IMG/VR virus record: IMGVR_UViG_3300027996_003878
Source: a virus
Lineage: Duplodnaviria; Caudoviricetes
Strand: one strand, 5' to 3'
DNA: 64,000 nt
The notes under the pieces were generated by a model, which was not told the DNA's origin, made no database searches, and saw only the letters and a program-made list of their open reading frames with translations. A program made the position numbers and the translations under genes. Positions 9,702 to 48,851 of this stretch are shown in pieces. Positions within the stretch are counted from its first letter, which is position 1. Each line of letters opens with the position of its first letter.

Positions 9702-10223
9702 TCAGTCAGCGGGTGAGATGTTTTCTAGTGCAGATATTTCGATAATCTTAGGAGCAGGCGTGCTTCTTTTTTTATCTGATCTTGGACTCACTTCATGCGT
9801 GAAAATAAAATAAGCCGCAATATCGCTATTCTCCAAATAATTAGCAACGCCACACCAACCGTTAAATACAGCTTCTTTGCGAACGCCATTAAAACGAAGA
9901 TCTGCAAGGTTCATTTTTACACTTGCGCGCTTTTTAACCTTGCTTGCAGAGCCACCCTTCTTATCAAAGAACGGACCATAAACAACTTGAGGCTCGACAT
10001 TCCATTTTTCCACAAAAATATCTACGACATTCTTTTTAGAAAAATTATCGTTTTCGTTGTCCTTTAGCTTGTCTTTATAATCTATAGAGCGATATCTTTC
10101 AGAAACCAGCTCGTTATTGATTAACGATGAACAAACCCAAATAACCGGGCGCGACCCCTTCGGCGCCCCTCTTTTTTTCTTTTGAATATTTTCAGATTCA
10201 GTTGAATTTTCAATTTGATTCAT
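9702..10223 (-). CDS. Hypothetical basic protein
   Basis: 173-aa ORF with its own sigma70-like promoter and terminator; KKRGAPKGSR AT-hook-like segment. Confidence 0.7.
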   Translation of the reverse strand: MNQIENSTESENIQKKKRGAPKGSRPVIWVCSSLINNELVSERYRSIDYKDKLKDNENDNFSKKNVVDIFVEKWNVEPQVVYGPFFDKKGGSASKVKKRASVKMNLADLRFNGVRKEAVFNGWCGVANYLENSDIAAYFIFTHEVSPRSDKKRSTPAPKIIEISALENISPAD

Positions 10224-10322
10224 TTAATTATTACCCTACCCCTGAACTTTTATTTAGTAACGTAATATTAATAATTTAAAAAAATTACTAAATAATTGTT
10301 CAGCGTTTCTTTGTACCTGAAG

Positions 10323-10351
10323 ATATTAAGCACCGCTCAAAAAGATGTCAA
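10323..10351 (-). promoter_or_regulatory. Sigma70-type promoter
   Basis: TTGACA-17 bp-TAATAT on the minus strand, upstream of 9702-10223. Confidence 0.75.
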
Positions 10352-10815: not shown

Positions 10816-10972
10816 TTAACTTCAATCTTGCATAAAGCTCTTCTCTAAGGGGGATGATTTTAGTATCAAGCGTGCGAACCTCCCTCATAAGTAGATCTTT
10901 TAATTTTCTTAATTTTTTTAATTCATGCTCTATATCTTCACATGTGCAATCTTCAATATTTTTAAATTTCAT
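10787..10972 (-). CDS. Small coiled-coil hypothetical protein
   Basis: 61-aa heptad-like ORF within the gene string. Confidence 0.55.
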   Translation of the reverse strand: MKFKNIEDCTCEDIEHELKKLRKLKDLLMREVRTLDTKIIPLREELYARLKLIEKENLENQ

Positions 10973-14338: not shown

Positions 14339-15070
14339 TCAAAATTTATAAGGAGTTAAAAATCCAATTTCTTCGGTAAATTGCCTCGCCATTTTCTCTT
14401 CAAGACTTTGCGCCTTGTACCCAAGCTTATGGTACAATCCGTATTTATAACTAAGCGCATGATAAAGCTCATGAGCAAAAGCATGATGAAACTCATTCAC
14501 TCTAATTTTCGCCTTCCCAAACCGAATTACGGTGCGATGTTTATTCAACACGTCATTTCTTACATAAAGATGGCTTGATTGCCTAGAATAATAACCCCAA
14601 AGATTACCTTTACCCAACGATTTTGCCCTCTCACGAAAGCGATACTTATAATCGTTCAAATTTCTGGCAGATCGACCTCCATCATAACTAGCAAAGGGAA
14701 GAAGAGAGACATCTATTCTTGAAGGGAGTTCATATTTATATTTATTAGACGAAACTCTTTTAATATTCAATCTAACTTTGTATTTTTTGATAAAGTGGGC
14801 AACCACATAGTTACAAGTCGCATTTAACTCTTTAACACTATGATACGTTCTCTTTGAAATATTATACTCAATATTTGACGGACGCCACTCCACAATACGT
14901 ACATTCTTACACAAATATTTAAGTTTAATTGTTTTTCGCAAACGCTCCGATGGCATTGTCTCCTCCATACAGAAAGACTTTGACTTAAAAGTACAAGCAT
15001 CCAATGCAAAAGAGTTATTTGAAAAAGAAATAACACTCAAAGCTACAAATAAAAAATAAAAAATTCTCAT
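14339..15070 (-). CDS. Secreted putative zinc metallopeptidase
   Basis: Signal peptide (MRIFYFLFVALSVISFSNNSFA) and FAHELYHAL (HExxH). Confidence 0.6.
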   Translation of the reverse strand: MRIFYFLFVALSVISFSNNSFALDACTFKSKSFCMEETMPSERLRKTIKLKYLCKNVRIVEWRPSNIEYNISKRTYHSVKELNATCNYVVAHFIKKYKVRLNIKRVSSNKYKYELPSRIDVSLLPFASYDGGRSARNLNDYKYRFRERAKSLGKGNLWGYYSRQSSHLYVRNDVLNKHRTVIRFGKAKIRVNEFHHAFAHELYHALSYKYGLYHKLGYKAQSLEEKMARQFTEEIGFLTPYKF

Positions 15071-15117
15071 GAATATAATATAACTATTGTTATTTACATG
15101 TCAATATTAAATCGTTA

Positions 15118-22545: not shown

Positions 22546-23301
22546 TTGAAAAATATATATTTGTTTCTTTTTTTATTATTATTTTCATTTGGATGTTGCA
22601 TTAATAAAACTAAGTCTCCTGAGGTAAAGCCGCCGAAATTAAGTCAGCAAAGCAGTGAAGTATCTGAAGCTCTAGCTTTAAAGTATCAAAACTCATCTGT
22701 GGCGTTAATTGTAAATTTGCCAAACACCTACAAAACCTATTGTAGCGGTGTGTGGGTTTCTAAGTACACAATGGTCACAGCCAAACATTGCGTTGAGCTT
22801 GAAGGATTGCTTGAAGGAGAGGATGTAATAGGAATGCCTTTAAGCTTAATAAGCTACAACGAATTCAGAGCCACTTTTCCACCAAAAAAGCGCGCAAAAG
22901 CCTTCAGCGCTATTGTTAGTGGCATATCTGAAGGCTCCGACATCGCTCTTCTTACTACAAAAGAAGAAGTTGCTCATGAGACAGTAAGGGTGCCTGAAAG
23001 GCCAATCGCCGTTGGAGGGCCAGCTTATATAGTCGGAAGCACCGCTGGCTTTCCATTTACGTTTATGAAGGGCGTTGTTTCTCAGATAAGAAAAATGAAT
23101 ATTTTTAAAAATAAGCCACCAATGAAAACGGTTCACATAACCGCTCATGTATGGTTTGGGAATTCAGGAGGCCCTGCTATTGACTCAAACGGAAACCTGC
23201 TGGGAATATGCTCTTTTATGATGAGGGCTCCAGGAGCCACATTCTTCGTACACAGAGACGAGGTAATAAAGTTATTAGATAAATACGAAATAGAATTCTA
23301 A
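22546..23301 (+). CDS. Trypsin-like serine protease with signal peptide (possible lipoprotein)
   Basis: Triad VTAKHCV, SDIALL, GNSGGP; hydrophobic N-terminus ending FGCC. Confidence 0.9.
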   Translation: MKNIYLFLFLLLFSFGCCINKTKSPEVKPPKLSQQSSEVSEALALKYQNSSVALIVNLPNTYKTYCSGVWVSKYTMVTAKHCVELEGLLEGEDVIGMPLSLISYNEFRATFPPKKRAKAFSAIVSGISEGSDIALLTTKEEVAHETVRVPERPIAVGGPAYIVGSTAGFPFTFMKGVVSQIRKMNIFKNKPPMKTVHITAHVWFGNSGGPAIDSNGNLLGICSFMMRAPGATFFVHRDEVIKLLDKYEIEF

Positions 23302-24530
23302 TCTTCATCGCTATAAGAATAAAACTCTAAAATCTTATCAGAAATTGATTTTAGAGTTTTTTGTTCAATTTTCCTAACGCCCTCCCGACTTAGATCTAAC
23401 ATCTCAGCGACTTTAACAAGGCTCGCGCATTCATTCTCAGAGTTAAATCCAAATCTTTGTTGGATAATAAACTTCTGCCTGTCATTTAATTGATTTAAAA
23501 TAAAATTAACATCATCAATTAAACGCTTTTTCAGCAATGAGCCGTCTGGACTCTGAAATACATTGCTCTGAAGGGAGTCAGAGCTGCTTTTAAACAATGC
23601 AACATTTGTTGAAAATCCTTTTCCGAAGTCTTCTGCTTTATTTGGATGCTCCTCAAAGGAAGAATAGTTGAAATTATTTAAAACAACGTTTATAATGTCT
23701 TTTGTATTTCCTGTAATTTCTTTATATTCTTCTTCATTTAAAGTTCTGTTCTTTAATAGTAAAGATTTCTTATTAAGTTTTTTATATTTACGTCTTTTAT
23801 TTTGAACATTAATTGGAAACCTTATTGTAGAATTCATATTATCTATAAATCTATTTATAAAAAACTTAATCCAGTAAACGGAATATGTTCCAAAGGAATA
23901 CCCTAATCTATAGTTATATTTATCAACCGCTCTCATTAAGCCGAAGATTCCCTCTTGAATCAAATCATCTACAGAAACATTAAGGCTATTTCTGTAGATT
24001 TTATAAGCAGACATTCTTACAAGTCCAATATGACTCTTTACAAATTTTTGTTTTTTATTAATTATATCTTTTAAGATATAATTAATTTCTTTCTTCCACT
24101 CTGAAAAGAATATAGTATTTTTTATCTTATTTATAGTCTGAGTGTAAATTTTATTATCGCTGTAGCTTATATTTGAAGAAAATATATTTTTATCAATAAG
24201 CCTAATCCATTCTGAAAAACCATCAGATCGGTTTATTTTTGAAACAAAGCTTGAGACTAACATACTAAAAGTACAAATACTGTAGTCGCAATTATTATAG
24301 ATAATATCTTTTAATTGATTATAATCTTTAGATTTAAATAACTCATCTGCATCAATAAATAATTCTTTTCTTTTGCTGTTGTTAATATCAGCTACTAGCT
24401 TTTCATTCAAATCTTTGAAAAAGCAAACCTGCAAAGGCTTGAATGAAAATAGCCTCAAGCATAAATCTTGATAAGATTCTTCAAGGTTTACGAAAAAGGT
24501 ATTAGTATCACTAGCGCTCGCAACAACCAT
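23298..24530 (-). CDS. RNA polymerase sigma-70 family factor (RpoD-like)
   Basis: DDLIQEGIFGLMRAVDKYNYRLGYSFGTYSVYWI; region 4 SLVKVAEMLDLSREGVRKIE. Confidence 0.92.
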   Translation of the reverse strand: MVVASASDTNTFFVNLEESYQDLCLRLFSFKPLQVCFFKDLNEKLVADINNSKRKELFIDADELFKSKDYNQLKDIIYNNCDYSICTFSMLVSSFVSKINRSDGFSEWIRLIDKNIFSSNISYSDNKIYTQTINKIKNTIFFSEWKKEINYILKDIINKKQKFVKSHIGLVRMSAYKIYRNSLNVSVDDLIQEGIFGLMRAVDKYNYRLGYSFGTYSVYWIKFFINRFIDNMNSTIRFPINVQNKRRKYKKLNKKSLLLKNRTLNEEEYKEITGNTKDIINVVLNNFNYSSFEEHPNKAEDFGKGFSTNVALFKSSSDSLQSNVFQSPDGSLLKKRLIDDVNFILNQLNDRQKFIIQQRFGFNSENECASLVKVAEMLDLSREGVRKIEQKTLKSISDKILEFYSYSDED

Positions 24531-25951: not shown

Positions 25952-26812
25952 CTACGGGCTAATATTTTTTCGTATGCAGTATCTGTGGAGTTTATCTTTC
26001 ACTTTCTTTTCAATTTGCCTGATTCTTTCTTTTGTTAAGTTGAGTTTTAATCCAATTTGTTCAAGTGTTTCTGGCTCGTCGCTTGTCATCCTCTTTTCTA
26101 AAATTAATAATTCAGCATCATTTAGAGATAGTTTAAATTTATTTATGTTTTCTTTTAAAATTAAAATATTTTCTAAATTTTCAAATATTTTTTCTGGTGT
26201 GCCTGACTCTCTGGCGCTAAGTTTTTCTAAAGAGTTTATTAAACCATTGCTGTCGTCTTCATTATTGTTGGACGAAGTGTCTAAGCTAAGCTCCGGCGAC
26301 GATAGTCTTTGTTCCATTTCAGAAAGCTCTTGCACTTTGACGTCAAGTCGTGCTGCAAGTTGCTCCTGCGTTAGAGATATGCCTTGGCCCTCTAGCTTTG
26401 CTTTTTCTTTTTTTAATACATAAAATAGCTTTCTTTGCGCTTTGGTAGTTCCGATGCGAACTAAATATGTAGACTCAAGTGTATATTTTAAAATATAGGC
26501 TTTAATCCATCCCGCCGCATAGCTTCCTAAGGGGACTCCAAGATACGGGTTAAATTTTTCAATGGCTCTCATTAATCCAAGAGTGCCTTCTTGAATTATA
26601 TCTAGGAAATTTTCTGAATTAAATTTATACTTACTTGCTATTTTGATGACTAGTCTTAAGTTGTGGTAGACTAATCTTTCTTTAGTTTTTTCATCTTTAG
26701 TTTCGTAATAAAAAGAAGTTAATTGTAACTCTTCTCCTTTTGACAATACTTTATATTCGCTAACTCTTTTAGTATAAAAATTTGATAGAATTGCTTTTTT
26801 TGAACTATGCAT
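25952..26812 (-). CDS. rpoH: RpoH/sigma-32-like sigma factor
   Basis: NLRLVIKIA, DIIQEGTLGLMRAIEKF, RpoH box RIGTTKAQRKLFY, TLEQIG....TKERIRQIE. Confidence 0.88.
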   Translation of the reverse strand: MHSSKKAILSNFYTKRVSEYKVLSKGEELQLTSFYYETKDEKTKERLVYHNLRLVIKIASKYKFNSENFLDIIQEGTLGLMRAIEKFNPYLGVPLGSYAAGWIKAYILKYTLESTYLVRIGTTKAQRKLFYVLKKEKAKLEGQGISLTQEQLAARLDVKVQELSEMEQRLSSPELSLDTSSNNNEDDSNGLINSLEKLSARESGTPEKIFENLENILILKENINKFKLSLNDAELLILEKRMTSDEPETLEQIGLKLNLTKERIRQIEKKVKDKLHRYCIRKNISP

Positions 26813-28262: not shown

Positions 28263-28290
28263 ATCATAATCATACCGTGATAATTGTCAA
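28263..28290 (-). promoter_or_regulatory. Sigma70-type promoter
   Basis: TTGACA-16 bp-TATGAT. Confidence 0.6.
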
Positions 28291-33104: not shown

Positions 33105-33153
33105 AATTTATCTAATTTTTGTAAATTTATACAGCAGATCTTTCTTAATATAA

Positions 33154-33474
33154 TCATCTAGGAGTAAATGTCAATTTTTTTTTATTATATTTTCTCACCT
33201 TTATCATGGTAACATGTATATCTGAGAGAAGGCTGTTTTTCAATTCATTTTCATGCAAGTCGCAAGAGAAGTTTATAAAAGCCTCACCTTCATCATTTTC
33301 AATAAAAAATATTTTAACAGGCTCACAAGAGCACTTCATGCATTTGGGAATCAATACACTTGAGAGTTTGTTATTTAATTTATTTATTTCATTTCGGAAT
33401 TCTTCAGCTCTATTTTCAGCTACAATTTTTTCTGTTTGCAGTGAGCGACATGACCAGCAATTATCCATAAGCAA
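33154..33474 (-). CDS. Cys-rich coiled-coil hypothetical protein
   Basis: CWSC, CMKC, CDLH motifs. Confidence 0.6.
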   Translation of the reverse strand: MLMDNCWSCRSLQTEKIVAENRAEEFRNEINKLNNKLSSVLIPKCMKCSCEPVKIFFIENDEGEAFINFSCDLHENELKNSLLSDIHVTMIKVRKYNKKKLTFTPR

Positions 33475-36491: not shown

Positions 36492-36671
36492 TTATTTGTT
36501 TGAAATATTTTTAGCAACATTTTGAATATATTTTATATTCCAATCAATTTTCTCTGATATTTCATTGTTCATAAATAAGTATAAAACATCATTCCAAGAG
36601 TCAATTACATCAGCAATATTGTATAGATTTATTGATAAATTGCGCGCTACTTGTTTTTTATTTTTATGCAT
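36492..36671 (-). CDS. Small protein not in ORF track (59 aa)
   Basis: MHKNKKQVARNLSINLYNIADVIDSW...; fills the gap in the minus-strand string. Confidence 0.5.
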   Translation of the reverse strand: MHKNKKQVARNLSINLYNIADVIDSWNDVLYLFMNNEISEKIDWNIKYIQNVAKNISNK

Positions 36672-36679
36672 TTTTAATT

Positions 36680-36877
36680 TTAATTAATGTTAAAATTGTT
36701 TGGAATCACATAAAAGCCGTAACATTTACTTTTGTCATGAAGATCACGATAACGGTAATGGCAAGATATATTAGTTTTATCATTACCTTTTAATTTTTTA
36801 ATAAATTGTTTTGTAAAAGAAATATTTGTCTTGTGTCCACATAAGTCGCATTTCATCGTAATGATAAAGTTATCCAT
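36680..36877 (-). CDS. Small Zn-ribbon-like protein
   Basis: CDLCGH...C...C. Confidence 0.55.
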   Translation of the reverse strand: MDNFIITMKCDLCGHKTNISFTKQFIKKLKGNDKTNISCHYRYRDLHDKSKCYGFYVIPNNFNIN

Positions 36878-36882
36878 TTTAC

Positions 36883-37158
36883 TTAATGCGATATTGTTTT
36901 CTTGTTGGTATCTTTCTCATCTGCGATTTGCGCCTCTTCATCAAGACGACTGGCGATGCTGCCTGATTTTTTGTGGAGAGAGGATACTGACTCTTTTTGC
37001 CAAGGCGCTGTCAAAGCCCAGCGAAAATCTTGGATCGCTCTTGATAATCCTGGGTGGTTTTGAGATTTTGCCTGTCTCTCTAAGTGAATAAATTTTTCAC
37101 GCGCCATTTCCAATTCTGAAAAAATCTCATTTACTTTTTGTGTCCAGTTTTTTTTCAT
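36883..37158 (-). CDS. Hypothetical protein
   Basis: 91-aa ORF downstream of the structured element. Confidence 0.65.
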   Translation of the reverse strand: MKKNWTQKVNEIFSELEMAREKFIHLERQAKSQNHPGLSRAIQDFRWALTAPWQKESVSSLHKKSGSIASRLDEEAQIADEKDTNKKTISH

Positions 37159-37185
37159 TATAAATACTACTTAAATTAAAAAATT

Positions 37186-37287
37186 AAATAAAAACCCTGG
37201 TGAGTGAAGTTATAAAAATAAACAGCCGGAAGGAGGGCAGCTAAAATTAAAAAGGCCACTCACCAGGGTGCTGCAAACGAAAAGGAT
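37186..37287 (-). ncRNA. Candidate small RNA or leader with a 13-bp closing stem and anti-SD loop (ends approximate)
   Basis: Perfect inverted repeat 37194-37206 / 37257-37269, followed by a U-tract; TTGACA-16-TATTAT promoter at 37294-37321; loop contains CCCUCCUUCC. Confidence 0.5.
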
Positions 37288-37418
37288 AAATCAATAATAA
37301 TCAGGGGCCTTAAAGTGTCAAGCGCTTACTAAAGTTTTTATTTTTAAATTAATTAAAATATCTTTAATACTTTTGAAGTAAGCATTTTTGTATATTACTG
37401 GTTATATTATTATTTGCT

Positions 37419-38156
37419 ATGGTGGACTCTAAATCTAGAAGCTTTTTAAAAGCAATAACGTGGAGAATTTTTGCGGTCATTCTTTTAATGTTAGTTTCGT
37501 TTGCTTTAACTCGCAGCATTAAAACGGTAACCTATATCACTTTACTTTATCATTCAATTCAAATATTTATGTTTTACTTACACGAACAACTTTGGAATTA
37601 TATAAAATGGGGCAAAACAAGAGGCTTGTTTGTTCAAATGACTGGCTTGAGCGGAGCTGGCAAGACTACTTTAGCTCAAGCGCTTGCGGAAAAATTAAGA
37701 AAGCAAGGCTACAAAATAGAAATAATTGACGGCGATGAGTATCGTGAGGGGATTTGTAAGGACCTTGGTTTTTCAAAGCAAGATCGTTGCACAAATATAC
37801 GACGTCTAGGTTTTGTTGGTAAGGTTTTAGCAAGAAATAATGTAATCGCAATTATGTCTGCAATTAATCCTTATGATGAAGTTAGAAATGAGCTAACTTC
37901 TATGGGAGAATTTGTAAGAACCGTGCATGTTAAATGTGACATTGAAACGCTAAAAAAGCGTGATACAAAAGGGCTTTATGCAAGGGCTCTACTGCCTGAT
38001 GGAGATCCCAATAAGGTCCACAATTTTACAGGCATATCTGATCCATTTGAAGAGCCTACTAGCGCAGATCTCACAATTGAGACCAACAAAGAAGAAATGG
38101 AAGCTTCTTTGAAGAAGCTTCATGAATTTGTTCTAAGAGAAGCGGGCTCTAAATAA
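37419..38156 (+). CDS. cysC: DUF2061 membrane domain fused to adenylyl-sulfate kinase
   Basis: SRSFLKAITWRI...HEQLW (DUF2061), then MTGLSGAGKTT, IDGD, NIRRLG, FTGISDPFEEP. Confidence 0.9.
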   Translation: MVDSKSRSFLKAITWRIFAVILLMLVSFALTRSIKTVTYITLLYHSIQIFMFYLHEQLWNYIKWGKTRGLFVQMTGLSGAGKTTLAQALAEKLRKQGYKIEIIDGDEYREGICKDLGFSKQDRCTNIRRLGFVGKVLARNNVIAIMSAINPYDEVRNELTSMGEFVRTVHVKCDIETLKKRDTKGLYARALLPDGDPNKVHNFTGISDPFEEPTSADLTIETNKEEMEASLKKLHEFVLREAGSK

Positions 38157-38158
38157 AA

Positions 38159-39349
38159 TTAATTAACGTTATTTATATTATTTTTACTTGGAACATCATT
38201 GATTGTCTGATGTCTGCCTGGGCCTACAGAAACCAAGCAGACGTCAATATTTAATTCTTCTGAGATATATTTGATAAATAATTTTGCATTTTTTGGAAGA
38301 TCGTTAAAGCTTTTCACATTTGTAATGTCTTCCTTCCAACCAGGAAACGTAGTAAAGCTATTATCTCCAATAACTTTTGGTAAATTATCTAAGCAAGGAT
38401 ATTTATCATTATTATAATCGGTCGCCACTTTGATTTTATCAAAGCCAGACAAAACATCTAATTTTGTTATGGCTAGCTTTGTAATTCCATTAACCTCAAC
38501 CGCATATCTCATTAAAGGCATATCCAGCCATCCCACTTTGCGAGGTCGGCCTGTAACAGAGCCAAACTCATGACCAACGGTTTGTAGGTGCGATGCAAGC
38601 TCTCCTTTTATTTCGGATGGGAACGGACCCTCGCCTACTCTTGTCACATAGGCCTTTGTTATTCCGATAACCTCGTCTATTAAGGTTGGCCCAACACCAG
38701 CTCCAGTACAGGCCCCGCCAGCGGTAGCGTTAGAGGAAGTTACAAAAGGGTAAGTTCCAAGGTCAACGTCTAGCAAGGTGCCTTGAGCGCCCTCAAACAT
38801 CACCTTTTTATTTTCTTTTATATTGTTATTTATAATTCTTGGAATATCAGCTTTTGAAAATCTTTTCAAATTATCAATAACTTCTTGTTTGAAATTATAA
38901 TTATTATTTTTAATAATATCTAGTACACGAATTCCATTTCGACTTATTTTATCTTCGTAGGTAGGTCCAATGCCTTTTTTCGTAGTTCCAATTTTAGAAT
39001 TTTTATTTATGTCACTTTCAATATGCTTTGGAAGAATGACGTGAGCGCGATCTGACAACATCAACCTACCCTCAAGCGTTAAGCCTAACCTTTCAAGGCC
39101 CTTCACCTCTTCGTAAAAGACGTTAGGGTCAATGACCATTCCATGACCCAAAATGCAAGTAGTATGAGGATGAAGTATGCCAGACGGTATTAATCGCAAG
39201 ATAGTCTTTTCACCATCCACATTTAATGTATGACCTGCATTAGGGCCTCCGGCGTATCGAACTACAATGTCGTAATCCTTTGCATAAAAATCAACGATTT
39301 TGCCCTTACCTTCGTCACCAAAAGCACAACCTACAAAAACAGTATTCAT
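38159..39349 (-). CDS. purA: Adenylosuccinate synthetase (canonical PurA)
   Basis: FGDEGKGKIVD, GGPNAGHT, IGTTKKGIGP, EGAQGTLLD, VTGRPRKVGWLD, TKLDVL. Confidence 0.96.
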   Translation of the reverse strand: MNTVFVGCAFGDEGKGKIVDFYAKDYDIVVRYAGGPNAGHTLNVDGEKTILRLIPSGILHPHTTCILGHGMVIDPNVFYEEVKGLERLGLTLEGRLMLSDRAHVILPKHIESDINKNSKIGTTKKGIGPTYEDKISRNGIRVLDIIKNNNYNFKQEVIDNLKRFSKADIPRIINNNIKENKKVMFEGAQGTLLDVDLGTYPFVTSSNATAGGACTGAGVGPTLIDEVIGITKAYVTRVGEGPFPSEIKGELASHLQTVGHEFGSVTGRPRKVGWLDMPLMRYAVEVNGITKLAITKLDVLSGFDKIKVATDYNNDKYPCLDNLPKVIGDNSFTTFPGWKEDITNVKSFNDLPKNAKLFIKYISEELNIDVCLVSVGPGRHQTINDVPSKNNINNVN

Positions 39350-42170: not shown

Positions 42171-42211
42171 ATTTAAATATTATTTTATACTATATTTTTG
42201 TATTTTAATAA

Positions 42212-42352
42212 ATGATGATTATAAAAAAGAGATGTTTAAAATGCTGGGTTGAATATAAAACATGGGACAAATTCAACACACCGCAACTCTGCCTGGACTG
42301 TTGTTTTAAAATAAAATTTACTAATAAAAATCATTTGAAGCTAGTAAAATGA
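42212..42352 (+). CDS. Small Zn-finger protein not in ORF track (46 aa)
   Basis: MMIIKKRCLKCWVEY..QLCLDCCF; stop overlaps the next ATG. Confidence 0.5.
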   Translation: MMIIKKRCLKCWVEYKTWDKFNTPQLCLDCCFKIKFTNKNHLKLVK

Positions 42353-42522
42353 GGATAAAAGTTGAAAGCCTCATTACAGCGGAAGAGAATGATTGCAAAA
42401 AGGTAGAGGTAGTATTTTATATAAATTCGAGATATTACAAAGAAAAGTGCAAAGAAAATATAAATAAAACAATAGCTATAATACAATATAAATTATCAAG
42501 ATGGCGGAGTTCTACGCAATAA
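42349..42522 (+). CDS. Small protein not in ORF track (57 aa)
   Basis: ATGA overlap with the upstream ORF. Confidence 0.4.
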   Translation: MRIKVESLITAEENDCKKVEVVFYINSRYYKEKCKENINKTIAIIQYKLSRWRSSTQ

Positions 42523-42686
42523 AAAATAAGCACGATTTTACTTTTTTGAAATCTAGTGAAAATGAAATAAATTCATTTATTTGCACCAAATGTGGGGAGC
42601 AGGCAAACTCAATTAGTCTGTATGATATGGAAAGAACAGAGTGTAGCGCTTTAACTAATTATTTATCAATTACTAAAAAAATATAG
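42501..42686 (+). CDS. Small Cys-containing protein
   Basis: CTKCG motif. Confidence 0.5.
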   Translation: MAEFYAIKNKHDFTFLKSSENEINSFICTKCGEQANSISLYDMERTECSALTNYLSITKKI

Positions 42687-42775
42687 CTTTATTTTGATAT
42701 AAAAATATAAAAGATTTAATTAAGATCAGATTATTTTATTTTATTAATTTTTTTTTTACCATTAATTGAGGATAT

Positions 42776-43495: not shown

Positions 43496-43541
43496 TGCCC
43501 TTATATTCAGAGAAAGCGGACCCGCCTTCCAGCTATTTCAT

Positions 43542-48823: not shown

Positions 48824-48851
48824 ATTATAACCACACAGCGCGATAAGTCAA
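48824..48851 (-). promoter_or_regulatory. Sigma70-type promoter
   Basis: TTGACT-16 bp-TATAAT. Confidence 0.7.

Follow-up and report, generated by a model that had tools for sequence, protein, structure and literature searches.

A putative promoter-proximal termination leader ahead of a small-gene operon in a giant phage genome

Between a σ70-type promoter and a 91-aa gene, the minus strand of this phage DNA carries a hairpin with a U-rich tail that we interpret, with a probability of about 0.5, as a promoter-proximal intrinsic terminator, i.e., a leader RNA that would act in cis to gate an operon of small genes (91, 65, and 59 aa). The order on the minus strand is promoter, hairpin, 35 nt, and the ATG (37158) of the 91-aa gene, within a gap of 260 nt that separates this gene from the divergent cysC gene. 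The window, by which we mean the whole 64-kb stretch of DNA that was analyzed, is gene-dense, contains phage-family hits together with auxiliary metabolic genes, and has a GC content of ∼34% (26.6% in intergenic DNA).

The stem is formed by a 5' arm at 37269-37257 (ACCCTGGTGAGTG; RNA ACCCUGGUGAGUG, plus a G that extends it to 37256) and a 3' arm at 37206-37194 (CACTCACCAGGGT; RNA CACUCACCAGGGU, preceded by a U that extends it from 37207), both on the minus strand. These arms make 13 perfect Watson-Crick pairs, 8 of them G-C, and one additional G-U pair (37256/37207), which leaves a loop of 50 nt when only the perfect arms are considered and of 48 nt when the G-U pair is counted. Inside the stem, two U-rich strands of 13 nt flank a weak central hairpin at 37242-37221 (minus strand; AGC.GCC paired with GGC.GUU around the 8-nt loop CUCCUUCC; −5.0 kcal/mol alone), which presents the C-rich "anti-Shine-Dalgarno" (anti-SD) motif CCCTCCTTCC at 37237-37228. 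A U-rich tail, UUUUAUUUAAUUUUUU... (37170-37193, minus strand; TTTT-A-TTT-AA-TTTTTT from 37193), lies directly behind the stem, and release of the RNA is predicted around 37186-37190. The T-tract is found behind the stem on the minus strand only. The initial annotation had described a perfect 13-bp stem followed by a U-tract, a 50-nt loop in which a short hairpin presents the C-rich motif, and a TTGACA-16-TATTAT promoter on the minus strand; all of these elements were located in the DNA.

The hairpin stands out from its surroundings by several measures. Folding of the region gave a minimum free energy of −31.7 kcal/mol (z = −4.65); all 200 shuffled sequences were less stable. Together, the stem and tail (UUUUAUUU) have an energy of −29.4 to −31.7 kcal/mol and display the stable stem and U-tract of an intrinsic terminator. 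In a scan for inverted repeats with perfect arms of at least 9 bp and up to 70 nt between the arms, the hairpin was the most GC-rich perfect inverted repeat of at least 13 bp in the 64-kb window, and its energy was the best among all hairpins of the window with a T-run behind them. Neither arm (ACCCTGGTGAGTG, CACTCACCAGGGT) has another copy in the window. The tail reflects more than the AT-richness of the DNA, since at least 8 T in 9 positions follow just 1.3% of intergenic positions. We also found that the GC-rich intergenic 19-mers that could be identified correspond to the tRNA and to terminator-like hairpins; two of these 19-mers lie on the element studied here, and three others exist besides. 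In contrast to the stem, the C-rich motif CCCTCCTTCC is not beyond chance by itself, with 2 occurrences against 1.4 expected when one mismatch is allowed. The hairpin also matched no curated riboswitch, cis-regulatory leader, or small-RNA family: no covariance model of Rfam 15 gave a hit overlapping 37170-37330, even at E values up to 10.

The promoter (−35 at 37321-37316 and −10 at 37299-37294, minus strand) matches the σ70 consensus at 11 of 12 positions, and its 16-nt spacer ends in TGAT, directly 5' of TATTAT. From the spacing of the promoter, transcription is predicted to start near A37287. An A-rich stretch at 37322-37350 (minus strand) may serve as an UP element, and similar A-runs lie 5' of the promoters at 33174 and 28290. 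Sites that fit the consensus at 11 or more of 12 positions occur 11 times in the window versus 3.0 ± 1.7 times in shuffled sequences (∼3.7-fold excess). The promoters at 37321, 33174, and 28290 have in common TTGACA-N12-TGAT-TATnnT and A-rich upstream DNA, with close variants of this pattern at 15104 and 48851. All five members of this σ70-like family, TTGACA-16-TATnnT (37294-37321, 33147-33174, 28263-28290, 15075-15104, and 48824-48851), are on the minus strand, each 5' of minus-strand genes. Given the excess over shuffled sequences and the features shared with 33174 and 28290, the promoter at 37321 is credible as one of a class of phage promoters. Two σ70-family factors (23298-24530 and 25952-26812) are encoded in the window as well. 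At 15104, the −10 element ends 5 to 7 nt before the ATG of the gene at 14339-15070 (minus strand), the mRNA of which would be leaderless or nearly so. Promoters of the Bacteroidota type (TAnnTTTG), which were sought as a clue to the host, were not enriched (6 of 100 genes versus 7 in the antisense control). An internal TTGACA-17-TATTAT promoter suspected at ∼36236 proved absent from the actual DNA.

The 91-aa gene (36883-37158, minus strand) is the first of the operon and has no SD sequence before its ATG. It is followed on the same strand, at spacings of 5 to 8 nt, by two small genes of 65 and 59 aa (36492-36877) that are presumably cotranscribed with it. The 91-aa protein defines a tiny family that comprises near-identical variants (P0001 and P0003) and, from an exhaustive HMMER search, a 102-aa homologue (P0004) with 49% identity and clear conserved blocks (KNW.Q, KFI.LE..AK...HP.L.RA, FRW.L..PWQKE, and IADE). 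The 98% variant, P0001, carries two substitutions, both conservative. Based on this variant and on the 49%-identical homologue, we take the 91-aa gene to be real and conserved. The protein is also on record on 13 contigs (P0001 on 2 and P0003 on 1); the longest contig on record, of 296 kb, gives an approximate size for the genome. Searches of Pfam, PHROGs, and the ESM Atlas yielded no match and no domain for the 91-aa protein, and the 65-aa and 59-aa proteins had no match to Pfam or to another family.

The arrangement is that of a leader, with a promoter, a terminator within ∼250 nt of it, a gene on the same strand, and no promoter in between: the 35 nt between the stem and the ATG contain no promoter motif and have no room for one. 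The upstream gene, cysC, is on the opposite strand, so that nothing else is evident from which the operon would be transcribed. We estimate at ∼1% the odds that the strongest terminator would fall by chance within 150 nt downstream of one of the 11 promoters (128 kb of strand). This anatomy fits the suggestion, made from the sequence at the outset, of an attenuator for the 91-aa gene.

From the features of the sequence, their excess over chance, and the order of the genes, we infer the following course of transcription. The RNA would start near 37287 at a strong σ70-type promoter and, 19 nt on, would enter the 13- to 14-bp GC-rich hairpin with the U-tract directly behind it. RNA polymerase would stop there much of the time, a leader RNA of ∼100 nt would be released, and the 91-aa gene, then the 65-aa and 59-aa genes, would be reached solely by polymerases that read through. 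The hairpin would thereby set, and probably also time, the output of the operon. Read-through may be constitutive and partial, since an interior of 48 nt should slow closure of the hairpin. Alternatively, a phage or host antitermination factor might raise read-through, and the C-rich inner loop might be the binding site of such a factor or might be incidental. No antiterminator gene was identified in the window. A candidate antiterminator fold, in which the 5' arm, ahead of synthesis of the 3' arm, pairs with GCUGCCCUCC and is enclosed by an outer helix, GCAGC/GCUGU (−14 kcal/mol), was rejected because it is no better than in shuffled sequences (z = −0.86). This alternative fold is therefore no evidence of a designed switch, and besides it, no other alternative fold was found. 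As it stands, the leader is a plausible but ordinary regulatory element.

With regard to Rho-independent terminators, the element shares with them a GC-rich perfect stem, a U-tract directly behind it, and the restriction of this tract to one strand. It differs from them in two respects: their loop is short, about 3 to 8 nt, and they are positioned after a gene, whereas here the interior comprises 48 to 50 nt with a weak subhairpin and the hairpin follows a promoter and precedes a gene. A scan of the window with a terminator consensus did not call the hairpin.

Similar arrangements have been mapped in other giant phages. In the jumbo phage 201phi2-1, ONT-cappable-seq revealed termination sites directly behind start sites, and 8 of 11 short RNAs originated from premature termination in 5' untranslated regions (5' UTRs), from which the authors inferred antitermination (PMC11512511). 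As with the 5'-UTR-derived small RNAs of 201phi2-1 and phiKZ (PMC11512511), the terminator studied here belongs to a giant phage, lies less than 250 nt from the predicted start site and just 5' of a gene, and has regulated read-through and/or a short RNA as its proposed outcome. The RNAs of 201phi2-1 and phiKZ were mapped experimentally, one of them being conserved across genera (PMC11512511), while the present one is predicted from sequence. There is no sequence similarity between our leader and those RNAs. In addition, 201phi2-1 and phiKZ are phiKZ-like Pseudomonas phages, whereas this phage has σ70-like promoters and sigma factors of its own.

Phage lambda offers another comparison: at PR'-tR' (6S RNA), a strong late promoter is followed by an efficient intrinsic terminator that is read through by means of the Q antiterminator. 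In both cases, a terminator lies within 100 to 200 nt of a strong promoter at the head of an operon, and a short RNA is, or here would be, the default product. Unlike in lambda, there is no Q-like gene upstream, where the neighbor is cysC on the opposite strand, and the downstream genes encode small proteins without an assigned function rather than late structural proteins. Neither a Q-binding element nor a promoter-proximal pause signal was recognizable in the promoter region. We rejected a lambda-type Q antitermination module, as the upstream gene encodes a DUF2061-APS kinase on the opposite strand and no such motifs are evident at the locus.

If the termination leader were confirmed, it would represent one more case of a giant phage timing or dosing small early genes by promoter-proximal termination, in a phage lineage that has no cultured relative and carries its own sigma factors. 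The segment 37340-37100 would also offer a clean, short template on which to follow the behavior of a terminator with a very large interior.

A different function for the same structure would be that of a 5'-UTR hairpin retained on the full-length mRNA, for protection of the 5' end against decay or as a mark for processing; termination would then be minor, and the U-rich tail would simply be the place, AU-rich and without an SD sequence, where ribosomes land ahead of the 91-aa gene. DNA preceding start codons is indeed AU-rich throughout the window, and a second promoter of the family, at 10351, also has a long leader hairpin, which lacks a U-tract. This second hairpin (10242-10303, minus strand) has a 19-bp AT-rich stem and a 24-nt loop (z = −3.94) and lies between a TTGACA-17-TAATAT promoter (10351) and the gene at 9702-10223. 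Structured leaders may thus be a habit of the phage, which keeps the reading as a stabilizing 5'-UTR hairpin alive. However, a 13-bp stem with 8 G-C pairs followed at once by UUUUUAUUU is physically shaped like an intrinsic terminator, T-runs of this kind are rare in intergenic DNA (the 1.3% of positions given above), and the hairpin begins at +19, although stems that protect against decay more typically sit at the 5' end. We consider this explanation unlikely.

The initial annotation had also suggested a trans-acting small RNA that blocks ribosome binding sites. In this reading, the CCUCCUU loop of a stand-alone RNA would mimic the 3' tail of 16S rRNA and block the SD sequences of host or phage mRNAs. 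An RNA of ∼100 nt with its own promoter and terminator, and with the C-rich motif in a predicted 8-nt loop between U-rich single strands, would have the appropriate design. It would recall the C-rich-loop regulatory RNAs of Firmicutes that pair with SD sequences, RsaE/RoxS and RNAIII, with which the element shares an unpaired C/U-rich motif complementary to GGAGG, a hairpin loop, and a short terminated RNA. Yet those RNAs carry several motifs, and here there is one, in an SD-poor genome and without enrichment of targets among phage start regions; Rfam gave no homology of the element to RsaE/RoxS or RNAIII.

The phage genes proved to be poor targets for such an RNA, as they hardly use SD sequences. 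An SD core (GGAG, GAGG, or AGGA) was present at positions −20 to −5 of 11 of the 100 called genes, versus 7.3 ± 2.8 in random windows, and the base profile 5' of 61 ATG starts showed, position by position, no purine or G peak. Sequences 5' of start codons were AU-rich across the whole window. When duplex energies were computed with the 20-nt core of the loop, start regions paired less well (mean, −8.0 kcal/mol) than gene interiors (−10.6 kcal/mol), so start regions are depleted, not enriched, for complementarity to the loop. The loop does have one extended match, GGAAGGCGGG, in a minus-strand mRNA at 43521-43530, but this match is no better than chance and seems to belong to a terminator-like hairpin that follows the preceding gene. 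Furthermore, the inner hairpin is weak (−5 kcal/mol), the position of the terminator 35 nt from a gene start is that of a leader, and a short RNA is the by-product of any strong leader terminator. A phage without SD use usually infects a host that starts translation likewise, which makes a general SD-blocking RNA unlikely. Because the phage hardly uses SD sequences, the anti-SD motif is probably not the point of the element, and the proposal of a trans-acting RNA gained no support from the phage genes. Such a role could coexist with a leader role, as for riboswitch-derived small RNAs, and we regard it as improbable.

The plus strand had been proposed in the initial annotation as a CsrA/RsmA target. 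This strand offers one hairpin with two overlapping GGA motifs; its stem is followed by GCTGCAAACG and not by a T-tract, leaving it without a terminator tail, and nothing resembles a promoter except a 9/12 match within the loop. The claim was not borne out, and a CsrA/RsmA-titrating RNA of the CsrB/RsmY/RsmZ type was likewise rejected on anatomy, GGA being present on the plus strand only and in a single hairpin.

The neighborhood of cysC suggests another role for a terminator at this site. The cysC gene (37419-38156, plus strand), which encodes an APS kinase with an N-terminal DUF2061 membrane domain, is inverted among minus-strand genes. The hairpin might be an inherited or insulating terminator against minus-strand read-through from the PurA-like gene, antisense across cysC, with a promoter that is unrelated to it or that arrived later with the insertion of cysC. 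In line with this idea, cysC abuts the PurA-like gene, with 2 nt between it and the stop codon of the latter; a single terminator-like site is present at this junction (38121-38100), and its T-tail is poor. Moreover, cysC homologues of other phages occur in quite different contexts, which is consistent with a recent acquisition. However, an insulator would be expected upstream of the promoter of the operon that it protects, not downstream; there is no promoter past the hairpin, and the promoter before it is a good member of the phage family. We therefore hold an insulating terminator to be improbable as well.

The hairpin might instead act as DNA, whether as a site of protein binding or recombination, as an origin, or as a miniature mobile element, or be a chance feature. 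It does form a palindrome of 76 bp, albeit an imperfect one, and lies in AT-rich DNA between divergent genes. Against this, the window contains just one copy, three public collections lack the core save for chance hits in GC-rich coding DNA, there is no turn of GC skew at the site, and the strand-specific T-tract and the promoter point to a role as RNA; we consider a function at the DNA level, or a chance feature, very unlikely. A MITE or REP element was rejected, the arms occurring nowhere else in the window and the 17- and 20-mers of the core giving chance hits alone in the three collections.

Still more speculative is a dual function, in which the ∼100-nt leader would gate the early operon in cis and, in trans, its exposed CCUCCUU loop would be a decoy for the tail of 16S rRNA, selectively silencing the minority of host mRNAs that are SD dependent while the SD-less phage mRNAs escape. 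This idea has little probability in our view; if true, it would describe a takeover strategy resting on a difference in translation start. Finally, a translation-coupled attenuator, in which a ribosome at the stop of a 17-codon frame (SGLFNFSCPPSGCLFL; GUG at 37263 to UAA at 37210, through the hairpin interior) would block the terminator, is highly improbable: the frame is open, its UAA lies 4 nt before the 3' arm, and CCUCCU would encode Pro-Pro, a known stalling pair, but it would begin at a GUG within the GC-rich 5' arm, and an open frame of this length has an estimated chance of about one in four.

To return to the termination leader, its distribution was addressed by searches for related DNA. 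Viral contigs yielded none for the exact arms with a variable gap, for the sigma factor, or for the PurA-like and 278-aa proteins. For the 91-aa protein, none was found in viral or in metagenome contigs. An alignment including P0004 also retrieved none. With the 17-mer and 20-mer of the loop core, all hits in viral, metagenome, and genome collections were at chance level and fell in DNA of 56 to 74% GC that is mostly clearly coding. Searches of GenBank phages by blastn and tblastn and of the whole records of five large cysC-carrying phages also returned no related DNA, and the relatives of cysC (L001 to L004) share no gene order with this locus.

The fusion of DUF2061 to cysC occurs at 62% identity in these four IMG/VR phages, in different gene neighborhoods. 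In our phage, cysC is arranged tail to tail with the adenylosuccinate synthetase (PurA-like) gene, 2 nt apart (37419-39349), and the PurA-like protein retains the GDEGKGK motif. Elsewhere in the window, the three other GC-rich 19-mers lie near 10866, 25856, and 42277, one of them inside a gap of ∼600 nt (42171-42775), and may mark further structured RNAs or terminators.
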